Source: a virus (Duplodnaviria > Heunggongvirae > Uroviricota > Caudoviricetes). From it: 7,616 nt of DNA. Shown in pieces: positions 2,808 to 7,473 of this stretch (within the stretch, counting starts at the first letter, position 1; the number at the start of each line of letters is the position of its first letter). The notes under the pieces were generated by a model, which worked only from the letters and a program-made list of their open reading frames with translations, did not search any database and was not told the origin of the DNA. Both the position numbers and the translations under genes were made by a program. The DNA is taken from IMG/VR virus record IMGVR_UViG_2695420643_000016, positions 1 through 7,616 of that record; one strand, written 5' to 3'.

Positions 2808-2959
2808 TTGTAGTTATCTCTCACCTCGCTGATACAGCAGGTGCAAATTGAGGGAACATCATGTACCGCAAATCAGAAGCGGAAACATCAAAGAAGCCGA
2901 ACCGATGGAGAACTGCGGAATAGGCCAGGACCAACGAATCCCCAGCCACAGAAACGACA

Positions 2960-2981
2960 AAACCCGCTCGACGGCGGGTTT
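2960..2981 (-). terminator. tR'-like intrinsic terminator in the late leader upstream of the holin
   Basis: On the minus strand, AAACCCGC-CGUCGA-GCGGGUUU (8-bp stem, 6-nt loop) is followed by UGUCGUUUCUG, a hairpin plus U-rich tract. It lies about 150 nt upstream of the holin start, where lambdoid phages place tR' between pR' and S. Confidence 0.4.
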
Positions 2982-3103
2982 AAGCTGTGTGGCGAAGTAA
3001 CCACTCTTAACAGATTACAATGTTTTTTGCGGAACGCGCTAATGATTTCCTCTTTTTTTTGTTGTATTTTTCACACGGTTGCTAAAATTATTTCGGATCG
3101 ATA
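2982..3103 (-). promoter_or_regulatory. inferred late promoter (pR') and Q-utilisation region, exact elements unresolved
   Basis: Inferred from position between the tR'-like hairpin and the cassette. The only -10-like hexamer on the minus strand is TGTAAT (plus coordinates 3015..3020) with a weak -35. No element could be assigned with confidence. Confidence 0.25.
3059..3088 (+). promoter_or_regulatory. candidate sigma70 promoter for the plus-strand cassette
   Basis: TTGTTG (3059..3064), 18-bp spacer, TAAAAT (3083..3088), about 15 nt upstream of ATG 3104. It is embedded in a T-rich tract that includes a T8 homopolymer at 3053..3060. The leader would be very short and has a weak SD. Confidence 0.25.
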
Positions 3104-4045
3104 ATGAGTACAGAAAATAAGAATAAAACCAGGCGAGTGAGAGTTGGTTTTTTCACTGGTAATGGAAGCAAAAAAGATGGCACATCTGCTGCAAAACTAG
3201 CCTTTGAGCAAATGACCACAGCAGATACTGTAACTTTTCCAATAACTTACACAACAGACACCCCAAATCGAGGGTTAAAGTTAGTTATTCTTCAAAAAGA
3301 TACCACACTGCAATGTTACTTTGGTTACGTATCGTGGAGAAGGGAATGCCTACTACCGTTCATCGAGGATGCTACAGGTAGTGAGAGAACAATTCCTTTA
3401 AATGATAAAGATTCTGTAGTTGAAAGAACATATTTTATCTATTACTACGAAACGGACTTATTAGCTATGACCCTCAACCATATAGGGCCCAAAGTAAATG
3501 ATCTGGCATTCATTTTGTATAACAAAACTGATTTAAAAAGCGTCACTTTTGAAGCCATTTGGAAACAAGAGAGCATGAAGGAACTGCTTGAGGACGGAAA
3601 TATCCTACGTAGTTTCGATCTTATAGTTGCTGCTCCAAGAAACTTTAACAAAGCTAATTATAAGATTAAAAACCCTTTAGCTAATGAAATTATTGACATG
3701 GTTGTTGGTATGGGCGGGTCGCATCTAAGATTAAATATGCGAGGTCGGATTCGCCCGAAAAAACAAGGATTTAACTATCTAAAAACTTCTGTCACCGATG
3801 CTATTAAGGAACTACTTGAACTTTTTCCAAAAGGTTCTGGAGGTCTAAAAATTAAAAAAATTGATGTAACAGAGCCATCCAATAGAACGCCCAAAAGTCT
3901 ACTTGACCAAGTATTGGTCAGTACAAAGACAATCATTGTCAAAAGCGGTTATCCATCCGATTCTGATATCAGAACGGCGATGATATCTGCTAAAATTGAT
4001 AACGCGAACTATCTTGCACAGTATGAGCTCGCTAGCAGAGACTAA
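3104..4045 (+). CDS. hypothetical 313-aa soluble protein, first gene of the AT-rich cassette; candidate sensor component of a RexA/RexB-like two-gene defence module
   Basis: Long ORF on the strand opposite the phage late operon. Hand-counted GC is about 33-37% versus about 58% in a flanking phage gene. No signal peptide or TM segment, and no Walker, HxH, DEAD or PD-(D/E)xK motif that I could recognise. It is followed after 21 nt by a membrane-protein gene. Confidence 0.8.
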   Translation: MSTENKNKTRRVRVGFFTGNGSKKDGTSAAKLAFEQMTTADTVTFPITYTTDTPNRGLKLVILQKDTTLQCYFGYVSWRRECLLPFIEDATGSERTIPLNDKDSVVERTYFIYYYETDLLAMTLNHIGPKVNDLAFILYNKTDLKSVTFEAIWKQESMKELLEDGNILRSFDLIVAAPRNFNKANYKIKNPLANEIIDMVVGMGGSHLRLNMRGRIRPKKQGFNYLKTSVTDAIKELLELFPKGSGGLKIKKIDVTEPSNRTPKSLLDQVLVSTKTIIVKSGYPSDSDIRTAMISAKIDNANYLAQYELASRD

Positions 4046-4066
4046 TAACCAAGCATGGAGGACACA

Positions 4067-4516
4067 ATGAGAGAATTAGCCACTTTTCTCTGGAAATGCG
4101 TCCTCTGGATTCTGTTGACCTATGCAGCGACAAAACTGTTTAAACCGATGAAGCATGCTGACGTACTCACAACAGCGGGGGTGCTCTCGACTATATCAGG
4201 CATCCTGTTTGGTTTTGTTCTGGCTGCAATATCTATATTTAGTAGTGCAAACAGCGATAAGGAAGGAGCAATTAATGCCCTTAAGCAAAACAACGTGTTA
4301 CCAACTCTGGTAAATAGATTACTTTCAACAGGGTTAACTCTCATCGTCGCGTGTATATTTCCATTGATAGCGATGTTTCTACCTGATGATGTTATTGTTG
4401 CGGGCAAACCTATTGATTTCCTGTTCATACTGTTAGGCTTATCCTCCCTTATAATTTCGCTATATACCTTCGGAAGGTGTTGGTTAGTGTTACGAAAAAT
4501 CTTCCCCCACTTGTGA
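4067..4516 (+). CDS. hypothetical 149-aa inner-membrane protein with four predicted TM helices; candidate effector of the cassette
   Basis: Track ORF 4055..4516. The ATG at 4067 is preceded by GGAGG at 5-nt spacing; the ATG at 4055 has no SD and would add MEDT. Four hydrophobic segments of about 20 aa each (FLWKCVLWILLTYAATKLF, VLSTISGILFGFVLAAISIF, LLSTGLTLIVACIFPLIAMFL, IDFLFILLGLSSLIISLYTF). Same AT-rich composition as the upstream gene. Confidence 0.8.
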   Translation: MRELATFLWKCVLWILLTYAATKLFKPMKHADVLTTAGVLSTISGILFGFVLAAISIFSSANSDKEGAINALKQNNVLPTLVNRLLSTGLTLIVACIFPLIAMFLPDDVIVAGKPIDFLFILLGLSSLIISLYTFGRCWLVLRKIFPHL

Positions 4517-4545
4517 CAGGTTGGCCTCATATGGGGCCAACCTGT
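4516..4545. repeat. stem-loop (11-bp perfect stem, 8-nt loop) at the convergent junction between the cassette and the Q gene
   Basis: ACAGGTTGGCC (4516..4526) pairs with GGCCAACCTGT (4535..4545). It begins at the stop codon of the membrane-protein gene and ends 7 nt before the Q stop. No U-tract on either strand. Confidence 0.45.
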
Positions 4546-4551
4546 GCAACC

Positions 4552-4917
4552 CTAAGCGTCCATTTCAAGGTTAACATCCAACATTGAAAGGCAACCATCA
4601 ATAAATCCTTCGGCTAGTTGTATTTCTATGCGTACCAATTTTTCATCCTTTCCACGCACCTTTGCAATCTTACGCTTGGATATTCTGTATAAATAATGTG
4701 CCACAAGCAGCGAGTGCTCATCTGGCTTTTTTTGCTTTAGACGAGCAAGACAACCTTCAATAATTAATGCATCACTATCTGAACAAGCCTGACGTGTTTT
4801 GCTTGTGTAGGGAAGAAGCCCCTTAAACCCAGCAGCTATAGGCGAATAGTCTACTCCAGAACTATCACTCGCCGCCCATGCTCCCCAACGCTCCAGAACC
4901 ATCTGAATATCACGCAT
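4552..4917 (-). CDS. late-gene antiterminator Q, short QuuD-like family
   Basis: Product MRDIQMVLERWGAWAA...AAGFKGL...LEMDA matches my recollection of the DLP12 Q homologue QuuD in its N-terminus and overall pattern. The track start is TTG at 4920; the ATG at 4915..4917 is preceded by GGAG. It sits between the nin-like genes and the lysis cassette. Confidence 0.7.
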   Translation of the reverse strand: MRDIQMVLERWGAWAASDSSGVDYSPIAAGFKGLLPYTSKTRQACSDSDALIIEGCLARLKQKKPDEHSLLVAHYLYRISKRKIAKVRGKDEKLVRIEIQLAEGFIDGCLSMLDVNLEMDA

Positions 4918-4934
4918 CAACTTTCTCCACCAAA

Positions 4935-5930
4935 TCAGGCCAACACCCCAATCGCCAGCGCGCGATCGATAAAACGAAATATCAGCTCCAGTTGGGAGCC
5001 ATACTTCTCTTCAAATGCCACGGTATCCGCATGCAGCTCGTCGTGATGCTTTCTGCACAAAGGCAACACAAAGAGGTCATGCGCTTTTGTACCCATTCCA
5101 CCCTGACCGTGACCTATCAGGTGGTGGGGATCATCAGCAGGCTTTCCACAACATGCACACGGCTGTGTCTTAACCCAGCGCGTGTACTTTTCATTAACCC
5201 AGCGGCGGCGTTTTGGTCGTAACATAAAAGACTCCAGCGACTCCGGATCCACTTTCAGCGCCAGCACCTTTTTCGCTTTATCCTGGATAATGCTGGTGGC
5301 AGGAACCGAAGGCACAAGGTCACTTTCCCGGGTGACCGCCTGCACAACAGGCTTCGGTAATCTCAGTGCCTTACGGGCTGCACTTTCCGGTAAGGCATCC
5401 GCCAGGTCATTACGAATCAGCCACCAGCACAGTTCCGGTATTGTCACAACGTGACTGTCATCAAAACCGAGATCCCGACGCACAACAGACAACACCCAGC
5501 GGGCACAGTTATCCGTTGCCATTGATTCCAGCCGTTCCGTGAACTGATCGCGCAGCTGGTTATCGCAGTGCCAGCACAAACGGATTGCGCCCGGAGCGTG
5601 TCGCATTGTTGTCATGTTCTCGCTGTGCCAGTCGGAATGAGGCCACTGGCAGCCTTTTTCACGAAGTAACCAGCTTTCAAGACATTCCACGCCACCAGCA
5701 CGACGGATCACTGCCTCATTGCGGAATACGGCCCGAACGGCAGGATCATCCGCCAGCGGTTGTGATGCCGCCGGAACGGCACCACTGGCGAAAGATGAAT
5801 AACGTTCCGGCTCAGGCTCCAGCAGGACACGCCCCTGCATAAACAGGGGCATCAACTCTGAACCTGGCCTGAACAATACGATCCCCATACGCGGGGCAAT
5901 TTCAGGGGTCAGTAGTGCTCTCACGGTCAC
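4935..5930 (-). CDS. DUF968-like prophage protein with C-terminal zinc-ribbon/HNH-like motif
   Basis: 331-aa ORF directly upstream of Q, the position YdfU (DUF968) occupies next to the Q gene in the Qin prophage. C-terminal CACCGK...DPHH...GGMG.K...LPLCRKHHDELH motif. The track start is GTG, 1 nt after the stop of the upstream gene. Confidence 0.55.
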   Translation of the reverse strand: MTVRALLTPEIAPRMGIVLFRPGSELMPLFMQGRVLLEPEPERYSSFASGAVPAASQPLADDPAVRAVFRNEAVIRRAGGVECLESWLLREKGCQWPHSDWHSENMTTMRHAPGAIRLCWHCDNQLRDQFTERLESMATDNCARWVLSVVRRDLGFDDSHVVTIPELCWWLIRNDLADALPESAARKALRLPKPVVQAVTRESDLVPSVPATSIIQDKAKKVLALKVDPESLESFMLRPKRRRWVNEKYTRWVKTQPCACCGKPADDPHHLIGHGQGGMGTKAHDLFVLPLCRKHHDELHADTVAFEEKYGSQLELIFRFIDRALAIGVLA

Positions 5931-5931
5931 C

Positions 5932-6741
5932 TCAATGAACGGTATCGAGCAGCTTTAACAGCTCAGGGAATCGGGATTCGAAGAAATGCGGCTGCGTCTC
6001 GCGCGGATTTGCGGGACTGGTGATGTTCTTGCCGAACATGCAGCCTTTCGCTGTCAGCGACCAGAATTTTTTGATGTTGTTAATCGCGGTACGGCTGTAT
6101 CGTTCGCGCTGCTCGACGATCCCCAGCTTCACCATCTGGTGATATGCCTGATTAGCCGTCAGGCGGATACCATACTGTTTCAGCAGTGCACTCAGTGACA
6201 GCGTAGGGCGACTTGAGCCATCGTGTGCATCAGCAGGAGCATCAATGGCATAGCGCGGTGCCAGATTCGGTAAGCCAACAGCCTCCTGGAGTTTCTGACA
6301 GGCCCCAAGCACTGAAGAGTTAGACAGGTTTAACTCCCTGCGCATAAAGTCCAGCAGAATCACTCCAGCCTGCATCTTGTCAGCAGCCTGCCCGGATAAT
6401 TTTTCCGGTGCGCTGGTTACCATATCGAAAGTACGGATCACCTTCAGATGGAATGACGGGCTGATCCACATTGCATAGGCATACACCAGTTCTTTGCAGA
6501 CATACGTCCCCTGGTTATTTCCGCCATTAATGACGCTAACTGGTTGATTTTGTTCCAGAGGCGGAATTCCACCCTCGGTGAAAAGTTGTTCAATCAATTC
6601 ACAGGTTTGCTTATTGGAGAGCCAGTATTTCGGGCGGTTTTTTTGTTCTCCCCCGGCTGCCCTGTGCAGATCGTTCAGGCTGTAACGCCCATAAGCATCA
6701 CGACGAACTTCAATACCATCAATGACCATCAGATTATTCAT
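5932..6741 (-). CDS. KilA-N domain protein with a C-terminal domain of unknown function
   Basis: N-terminal region MNNLMVIDGIEVRRDAYGRYSLNDLHRAAGG...KYWLSNKQT...VCKELVYAYAMWISPSFHLKVI resembles the KilA-N DNA-binding domain. The track start at 6774 has no SD and overlaps rusA; the ATG at 6739..6741 is preceded by AGGAGA and is preferred. Confidence 0.75.
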   Translation of the reverse strand: MNNLMVIDGIEVRRDAYGRYSLNDLHRAAGGEQKNRPKYWLSNKQTCELIEQLFTEGGIPPLEQNQPVSVINGGNNQGTYVCKELVYAYAMWISPSFHLKVIRTFDMVTSAPEKLSGQAADKMQAGVILLDFMRRELNLSNSSVLGACQKLQEAVGLPNLAPRYAIDAPADAHDGSSRPTLSLSALLKQYGIRLTANQAYHQMVKLGIVEQRERYSRTAINNIKKFWSLTAKGCMFGKNITSPANPRETQPHFFESRFPELLKLLDTVH

Positions 6742-6760
6742 ACTTCGTTTCTCCTCTTGA

Positions 6761-7150
6761 TCAGGCGGCTGCACCCGCCGTTTTCTCGTACTTACTGATA
6801 GTGATCTCGACCTTCCCTTCCGGGATAACCGGTCCCCACTCCACCAGCATTCTTTTCACCTGGCTGTCGTCTTCCCACACACCCGCGTGAGTCAGGGCGT
6901 CAAACAGCGCCTTGTTATAGTTGTCCAGATCGCGGATCCGGTTATCCGGAGGAAACAACACGATCTCCACTGAAGCAGGTGCTGACGTTGGTTTCGGCAG
7001 ACGACGTAACTGCTCAACTATTGCTGTGCACGCCGCACTCTGGAATTTTCGCCCCGCCGCGCTTATCAGGCTCTTACCAGCAAACGCCCCTTTGTTGGGG
7101 TGTCGCCAGTACGTGTTCACGCTGGGCGGAAAAGGCAGGATCAGCTTCAT
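6761..7150 (-). CDS. rusA: Holliday junction resolvase RusA
   Basis: 129-aa product with the RusA signature region DLDNYNKALFDALTHAGVWEDDSQV, which resembles E. coli RusA (DLDN..KA.FDALT.AG.W.DD.QV). Typical nin-region position. Its start overlaps the stop of the upstream gene (ATGA). Confidence 0.85.
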   Translation of the reverse strand: MKLILPFPPSVNTYWRHPNKGAFAGKSLISAAGRKFQSAACTAIVEQLRRLPKPTSAPASVEIVLFPPDNRIRDLDNYNKALFDALTHAGVWEDDSQVKRMLVEWGPVIPEGKVEITISKYEKTAGAAA

Positions 7151-7473
7151 GCTTTCAGGCCTCTCTCATGTAACCAGTGGGTTGCACGCAGCCTTGCGTT
7201 TTCCTCACCGGCAAGCAGTGAGCGGATAATCCCGACCGCCTCGCTGTCGTCGTCCTTCACCGCGGTATGAAGCGTTATCCCCCGGGCCACGCCACGCTTT
7301 ATCGTGATGACGCCTTTTTTCTCCAGTGCGCGAAGATGCTCCACCGCTGCATTCACTGAACGGTATCCCAGCATGGTTGCCACCTCCTGATTGGTTGGCG
7401 GGAAGCCACGTTCTTTCTGGTAAGAAATCAGCATATCCAGCACCTGCTGCTGGCATTGAGTTAATGTCGTCAT
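7147..7473 (-). CDS. LexA-family N-terminal DNA-binding domain protein (winged helix), no peptidase domain
   Basis: Product MTTLTQCQQQVLDMLISYQKERGFPPTNQEVATMLGYRSVNAAVEHLRALEKKGVITI...ARGI parallels the LexA N-terminal domain (LT.RQ.EV...I......G.PPT..EIA..LG..S.NAA.EHL.AL..KG.I). At 108 aa it is too short to carry the S24 peptidase domain. Confidence 0.8.
   Translation of the reverse strand: MTTLTQCQQQVLDMLISYQKERGFPPTNQEVATMLGYRSVNAAVEHLRALEKKGVITIKRGVARGITLHTAVKDDDSEAVGIIRSLLAGEENARLRATHWLHERGLKA

Follow-up and report, generated by a model that had tools for sequence, protein, structure and literature searches.

The RexAB pair of phage lambda is, to our knowledge, the oldest phage-exclusion system on record. 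It consists of the 279-aa RexA (pI 8.6) and the 144-aa RexB. The structure of RexA comprises a seven-stranded globular domain, which is split by a dimerisation domain, and a kinked helix that closes it at the C-terminal end (PMC11077077). Another system of the RexAB type, RexABpp (PP_5643/PP_5644) of Pseudomonas putida prophage P1, has been validated experimentally; according to that study, the soluble protein of Rex-type systems activates, and does not neutralise, the membrane protein, and only five Rex-like systems are counted as described (PMC12894663, Sci Rep 2026). Sbash gp30/gp31 and CarolAnn gp44/gp43 (DUF4747), found in Actinobacteria, likewise combine a soluble RexA-like protein with a protein with four transmembrane helices (4-TM), are expressed from the prophage, and act against heterotypic phages, their triggers being Crossroads gp132/gp141, to which nothing is known to correspond in the cassette described below. 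The conserved cytoplasmic loop between TM2 and TM3 of Sbash gp31 is essential for function, and defence is lost upon the substitutions R70A and D73A (PMC6426596).

A cassette carried by a prophage of E. coli comprises a RexA-like gene (gene A) and an adjoining RexB-like gene (gene B), and therefore in all likelihood represents a Rex-type anti-phage system that has escaped annotation. We assign a probability of about 0.65 to the reading that the two proteins function as a prophage-carried phage-exclusion (abortive infection) module. The window analysed here, i.e. the whole stretch of 7,616 nucleotides, belongs to an SfII/e14-like lambdoid prophage of E. coli, of which it covers the late-gene side, read on the minus strand. 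The genes listed in Table 1 were named from the open reading frames of the window and from the RefSeq annotation of a chromosome that is 99.8% identical to it. In the window, KilA-N is encoded by an uninterrupted ORF of 280 aa; its counterpart in this chromosome (L002:23133-23930) contains an internal stop and bears a pseudogene annotation.

Table 1. Features of the window, with positions, strands and assignments
Feature	Position	Strand	Description
Small terminase	201-704	minus	
HNH endonuclease	821-1270	minus	
Spanin	1625-2017	minus	
Lysozyme	2001-2477	minus	
Lambda-family holin	2481-2807	minus	
Whole inserted cassette	3059-4551	+	low GC; between the Q stop and the conserved late-promoter region
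Upstream non-coding stretch	3059-3103	+	candidate extended -10 promoter, inferred by eye
Gene A	3104-4045	+	313 aa; cytoplasmic, basic; divergent DUF6731 (PF20505) subfamily; remote RexA homolog
Motif 1 of A	3440-3517	+	YYYETDLLAMTLNHIGPKVNDLAFIL, residues 113-138; pairs with RexA about 94-122 (LFVEGDTIGFARTVFGPTTSDLTDFLIGK)
Motif 2 of A	3608-3646	+	RSFDLIVAAPRNF, residues 169-181; first strand and following loop of the predicted central domain; invariant AAPR block
Gene B	4067-4516	+	149 aa; hydrophobic, four long helices; RexB-like putative effector
Hairpin	4511-4549	either	dG -27.3 kcal/mol, z -4.0
Antiterminator Q	4552-4920	minus	
DUF968 protein	4935-5930	minus	
KilA-N protein	5932-6774	minus	
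RusA	6761-7150	minus	
LexA-like protein	7147-7473	minus	

The cassette genes run between the holin and Q on the strand opposite to the late genes, and the GC content of the cassette is 39.2%, compared with 52.2% in the remaining window. The insertion site is located between the Q stop codon and the conserved late-promoter region. Positions 2959-3058 of the window are homologous to DNA that directly abuts Q in many lambdoid and Stx phages, and the cassette is therefore regarded as an insertion between Q and the late promoter/terminator region. The displaced segment looks like a late promoter, leader and terminator of the pR'-tR' type, and includes a GC-rich, terminator-like hairpin (2981-2960, minus strand) that has a T-run behind it when read along the late-gene strand. 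Since the cassette lies on the opposite strand and upstream of the conserved late-promoter region, it is outside the late lysis transcript; unlike lambda RexAB, it is also outside the immunity region.

A consensus promoter scan made no call within the non-coding stretch upstream of gene A, and gave no clear promoter for the cassette. The candidate recognised by eye comprises TTGTTG (3059-3064), an 18-nt spacer and TGcTAAAAT (3080-3088), and would leave a leader of only about 8 nt. The scan returned a single promoter-like site (4736-4764), which is internal to Q and has no bearing on the cassette. The hairpin at the opposite end has 17 base pairs, interrupted by one single-base bulge, and separates the stop of gene B (4516) from the convergent stop of Q (4552); it is not followed by a T-run on the plus strand, and may act as a bidirectional transcription stop or as an RNA-stabilising element.

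Of 5,426 complete E. coli genomes, at least 73 carry the cassette at 99% identity or more, divergent alleles being additional to this number, and the genes of all 73 copies are annotated as two hypothetical proteins. One of these full-length copies, with holin and Q flanks, is found on NZ_CP104632.1 (100,861 bp), which is labelled as a plasmid; a phage-plasmid and an artefact of assembly are both possible explanations.

Gene A had been delineated in a preceding sequence-only reading of this DNA as a 313-aa ORF, which was recovered exactly (ATG at 3104, stop ending at 4045) and is present in RefSeq as hypothetical protein WP_001446998.1. The description of its product as hydrophilic and free of a signal peptide also holds: GRAVY is -0.36, pI is 9.3, and the best 19-residue hydropathy is 0.86, which indicates that there is no signal or transmembrane segment. 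In agreement with the reported lack of a P-loop or other catalytic motif, protein A contains no Walker A motif, and searches of Pfam, NCBIfam and PADLOC revealed no domain, including enzyme domains. In PHROGs, the protein is placed in phrog_7651, a family with no assigned function. The 46 full-length homologs, at 43-100% identity, indicate that A is a real, conserved gene.

More distant homologs of A carry the Pfam domain PF20505 (DUF6731). The PF20505 HMM does not match protein A itself; it matches 21 of its 33 close homologs and, in the wider set of 126 relatives, 112. The profile of the A subfamily aligns with that of core DUF6731 over 284 columns (hhalign 99.8%, E 1e-28), and protein A is assigned to DUF6731 by homology at the sequence level. 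When 1.84 billion representative proteins were searched with a profile, 168 relatives were retrieved at E <=1e-3, almost all of them 280-320 aa long; these representatives, obtained at 50% clustering, originate from prophages of Enterobacterales and from diverse metagenomic and viral contigs. Searches of PDB sequences by phmmer and hmmsearch, using the single protein and the 33- and 126-sequence profiles, returned only spurious eIF2-alpha matches (E about 0.07), and did not retrieve the RexA structure 8TWQ. In the literature searched, no paper mentions DUF6731, and searches for Rex-like systems at the Q-side site gave nothing on this cassette.

The principal suggestion of the sequence-only reading was that protein A might be a RexA-like sensor. 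Pairwise comparison of A with lambda RexA by BLASTP was not significant (E 0.49), the best segment being A 114-141 against RexA 95-122. When the 126-sequence DUF6731 alignment was compared with a 25-sequence RexA alignment by hhalign, a single, collinear and near full-length match was obtained over 255 columns (89%, E 2.3e-6, score 48.6), in which A 13-310 corresponds to RexA 1-271. The scores of the controls were 16.5 and 18.3 for reversed alignments and 13.0-19.7 for 20 column-shuffled RexA alignments, so that the profile-profile comparison supports the suggestion. The match to RexA strengthens with alignment depth, from a probability of 1.4% for the 33-sequence profile of the A subfamily, through 29% for the core DUF6731 profile with the window subfamily left out (E 6e-4, 220 columns), to the 89% given above, with the register unchanged; the signal therefore does not hang on one alignment.

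The RexA models of Pfam (PF15969) and PADLOC (PDLC02339), which do match lambda RexA (1e-96 and 1e-108), gave no match to protein A at E up to 10 and none to the 126 DUF6731 members within the E 0.1 reporting limit. Protein A is thus not a RexA-family member in the Pfam/PADLOC sense, as the thresholds of the RexA HMMs are not reached. DUF4747 likewise had no match among the 126 DUF6731 members within the E 0.1 reporting limit.

Two short stretches of protein A had been said to resemble RexA, with a different spacing between them. Motif 1 is the most conserved block of the DUF6731 family (...E(K/R)(N/T)xFxYY...L...N..G(P/S)), and it pairs with the same RexA segment (91-122) in every profile alignment; it also coincides with the best BLASTP segment, which alone is not significant. 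The blocks NHxGPK and AAPR of protein A are invariant, AAPR being part of motif 2. The resemblance of motif 2 stands in part. In the full-length profile alignment this motif pairs with RexA 150-161 (FIGRTTVKVEAK), and not with the look-alike segment RexA 183-194 (FDSLDIVIKPKF), whose counterpart is A 206-218. The distance between motifs 1 and 2 is 56 residues, which agrees with the 55-57 residues in RexA when the former segment is used, while a mismatch would arise with the latter. Our guess is that RexA 183-194 was the segment meant, and the reported discrepancy in spacing was probably caused by taking this look-alike for the counterpart of motif 2.

The AlphaFold2 model of A, built from the 33-sequence alignment (pLDDT 73, pTM 0.62), begins with a region rich in strands that also has two helices (8-141), continues with an alpha/beta region in the centre (149-280), and ends in a kinked helix (286-307), which is broken at residue 300. 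In the predicted layout, an N-terminal beta-sheet domain and the C-terminal kinked helix are split by the central alpha/beta domain. This arrangement, obtained by the kind of structure prediction that the sequence-only reading had proposed, fits the published description of RexA and agrees with a fold of the RexA/RdgC type; it is very likely that protein A has the RexA fold. A difference from RexA is that the modelled central domain, equivalent to the dimerisation domain, is about 40 residues longer and includes extra strands (249-280). On the evidence of profiles and predicted structure, A is a remote homolog of RexA; neither of the outcomes named in advance as contradicting this idea, namely a lack of similarity to RexA or a confident match to an unrelated enzyme family, was observed. 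RdgC (PDB 2OWL) scores below RexA, contains an extra tip domain, and is the product of a chromosomal housekeeping gene with no membrane partner. The identification of A as RdgC was rejected, as RdgC was not its best match and the gene does not occupy a chromosomal single-gene context.

The longest ORF of gene B opens at 4055 (153 aa), and the start at 4067 is favoured by the Shine-Dalgarno sequence GGAGGA at 4058-4063, by RefSeq and by most homologs; it places the beginning of gene B 21 nt after gene A. The AlphaFold2 model of B is a four-helix bundle (pLDDT 80; helices 2-24, 30-60, 77-104 and 116-145), in which the loop between TM2 and TM3 includes a short extra helix, and B is predicted to have four membrane-spanning helices. 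TM2 and the TM2-TM3 loop, the latter equivalent to the loop that is essential in Sbash gp31, are among the most conserved regions of the B family. With 313 aa (pI 9.3) and 149 aa, the window pair is similar in size and charge to RexA and RexB, with the same gene order, and B has the length (about 140-190 aa), the topology (four TM helices) and the position (directly downstream) of a RexB-like effector. The best structural matches in BFVD for A and B are proteins of 314 aa and 172 aa, respectively, both from uncultured phage ctylc9; next in rank for B comes a protein of 165 aa from phage Sbash.

BLASTP of B against lambda RexB gave E 0.83; searches of Pfam, NCBIfam and PADLOC with protein B found nothing, and in PHROGs only a family with unassigned function was matched. 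The RexB models PF15968 and PDLC02340, which do match lambda RexB (8e-92 and 9e-61), matched neither B nor its 35 homologs, which excludes B from the RexB family in the Pfam/PADLOC sense. An 84-sequence alignment of partner proteins, compared by hhalign with 14 RexB sequences taken from loci adjoining RexA homologs, produced a weak match (28%, E 6e-4, score 27.5), which is in register (24-89 against 25-91) and extends across TM2 and the loop; reversed and shuffled alignments and unrelated membrane proteins, used as controls, scored 8.5-16. Membrane helices are prone to spurious similarity, and the profile match is at most suggestive of homology between the B family and RexB.

The association of the two genes extends far beyond the window. 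Among the DUF6731 loci drawn from genomes, metagenomes and IMG/VR, 71 had enough downstream DNA, and in 68 of them a hydrophobic ORF of 112-159 aa on the same strand adjoins or overlaps the 3' end of the DUF6731 gene. Common to the partners is a motif, S..G.L.GF..AA.SI....D..L..N...TGH, that covers TM2 and the loop after it. Many core DUF6731 loci (L053, L099-L105, L107, L109, L112, L119, L046 and others) have partners that overlap by exactly 37 nt; in other loci the overlap is 3 nt, or the partner starts 4 nt past the stop, as compared with the 21 nt separating the window pair. These overlaps suggest conserved translational coupling. The pairing of A and B is thus conserved across DUF6731, and the four-helix, RexB-like partner lends the RexA hypothesis a support that was not part of the original sequence-only evidence.

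RexA can bias the lysis-lysogeny switch without RexB, and protein A could in a similar manner be a DNA-binding protein of the RdgC/RexA fold that serves the prophage's own biology, through lysis-lysogeny bias or recombination, with B acting as its anchor or being an unrelated co-transcribed gene. Such a role is considered unlikely. A different explanation is invited by the position of the cassette, which adjoins the holin-endolysin-spanin genes, and by a few B homologs with very weak matches to holins (Phage_holin_5_2, E 0.006; Hol_Tox, 0.07): the pair could be a membrane-acting superinfection-exclusion or lysis-control module, in which B blocks DNA entry or modulates the holin and A is a regulator. 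However, these matches are far below threshold and concern only 2 of 35 members of the B family, the cassette and the lysis genes are on opposite strands, with the cassette located upstream of the conserved late-promoter region, and elsewhere the same pair is found beside repressors and integrases. This explanation is therefore judged quite improbable, and on the same grounds of strand, sub-threshold Pfam matches and genomic context, B was rejected as a holin or antiholin.

Membership of the window cassette in the P. putida family was rejected, as hhalign with 5-sequence profiles gave E values of 0.24 and 0.18, which are at background level. Unlike A, PP_5643 is not a DUF6731 protein (hhalign E 0.24, no Pfam match); its native start codon is GTG. 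RexBpp is longer than B of the window (188-194 aa) and has no significant profile similarity to it. In the same shallow set-up, the RexA profile did not recover PP_5643, for which an HHpred probability of 98% with RexA is reported (PMC12894663); the hhalign set-up used here is therefore conservative. The window pair is a separate, new sequence family that has the gene order and partner type of Rex systems and, according to the models, the same fold; it differs from lambda RexAB (PF15969/PF15968, PDB 8TWQ) in the lack of significant pairwise similarity.

In the P. putida work, a two-gene construct was unobtainable in E. coli, a failure that the authors ascribe to leaky expression being toxic, and mutations suppressing the toxicity induced by RexApp are located in the membrane gene (PMC12894663). 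These observations, and the fact that the module is a small unit of two genes, would suit a toxin-antitoxin-like addiction module, where a membrane toxin B restrained by A stabilises the prophage. We regard this as very unlikely, as the soluble partner activates the membrane protein in Rex-type systems, and A is modelled with the RexA fold and with no known antitoxin fold. Toxin-antitoxin behaviour and defence are nevertheless compatible, and both could hold.

Under the preferred reading, that of a Rex-type phage-exclusion module, we infer that the pair is expressed in the lysogen and that the outcome is anti-phage defence. Protein A, which is cytoplasmic, RexA-like and predicted to adopt a two-domain fold resembling that of RdgC, would be the infection sensor or activator; the sensor role suggested in the sequence-only reading is retained here by analogy with the described systems. 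Dimerisation and non-specific binding to DNA are probable, as would be expected from these systems, the basic pI of 9.3 lending them indirect support, and A may detect an infection-specific cue from the infecting phage. Once triggered, A would activate B, the four-helix inner-membrane protein in the role of RexB, which in turn may compromise the membrane by depolarisation or leakage. The infected cell would then stop growing, and the infection would be aborted.

Alleles at the insertion site further connect the cassette with Rex-type systems. In Shigella phage SfII (KC736978; L126:3294-4908), the same Q-to-holin site is occupied by a different pair, SfII_50/SfII_49, in the same orientation and with a GC content of 32%. 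SfII_49 is 37% identical (E 1e-32) to PP_5644 (RexBpp), and SfII_50 weakly aligns with RexApp; a sibling phage thus carries another Rex-type cassette at the same site. An E. coli allele (P0035) that is only 47% identical to A and is accompanied by a partner of its own occupies the same site, between Q and the lysis side, in the same phage backbone. A further allele, 45% identical (P0039), is holin-proximal beside a different lysis module, on a contig that ends before Q. The Q/holin site looks like a hotspot at which Rex-type cassettes are exchanged.

A short motif of TM2 preceding the cytoplasmic loop is alike in the three RexB-like families: B of the window (4067-4516) has SGILFGFVLAAISIF, RexBpp and SfII_49 have LPGFYIAALAAIATF, and lambda RexB has AGTMIAILIAALTF; the sites compared outside the window were L121:1568-2134 and L001:326-760. 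The weak pairwise profile matches between these families all centre on this motif, and the likeness could reflect either common ancestry or convergence.

In four types of loci (L082, L096, L106 and L114), the pair is located directly downstream of, and co-oriented with, a repressor with HTH and Peptidase_S24 domains. Repressors of this architecture are of the cI/LexA type, and this placement mirrors the cI-rexA-rexB order of lambda; other DUF6731 pairs are found near integrases. The A-B pair is mobile, low-GC prophage cargo. The broader proposal, that DUF6731 and its partner make up a distinct and widespread branch of Rex-type abortive-infection systems, and that SfII-like phages of E. coli and Shigella possess a Q/late-promoter hotspot trading unrelated Rex cassettes as well as divergent alleles, is held with somewhat better than even confidence. 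If it is true, it implies diversifying selection for different phage triggers.

The link to RexAB offers a probable function for DUF6731 and for the two hypothetical-protein genes carried by at least 73 of the 5,426 E. coli genomes. The many diverse sequences now available can be used to work out what is conserved among RexA-like sensors and among RexB-like effectors, TM2 and the TM2-TM3 loop in particular, and a prophage site with replaceable Rex-type cassettes is useful for finding triggers and specificity determinants. The DUF6731 branch is missed by the current PADLOC models (PADLOC-DB 2.0).

Other genes related to the conflict between phages and their hosts were found in the neighbourhood of these cassettes. 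A lambdoid phage with a 45%-identical cassette allele has a late gene containing the Pfam Acb2/Tad1 hairpin domain (L125:2792-3085); Acb2/Tad1 is a family of anti-CBASS and anti-Thoeris sponges. In E. coli EC1722-1, an AAA ATPase and RloB-family pair is encoded just outside the prophage, near its integrase (L002:32476-41000), and is adjoined by a P4-like satellite (sid, psu, ogr/delta) with an nSTAND1 NTPase. The RloB pair and the nSTAND1 NTPase are probable further defence cargo of the same neighbourhood.
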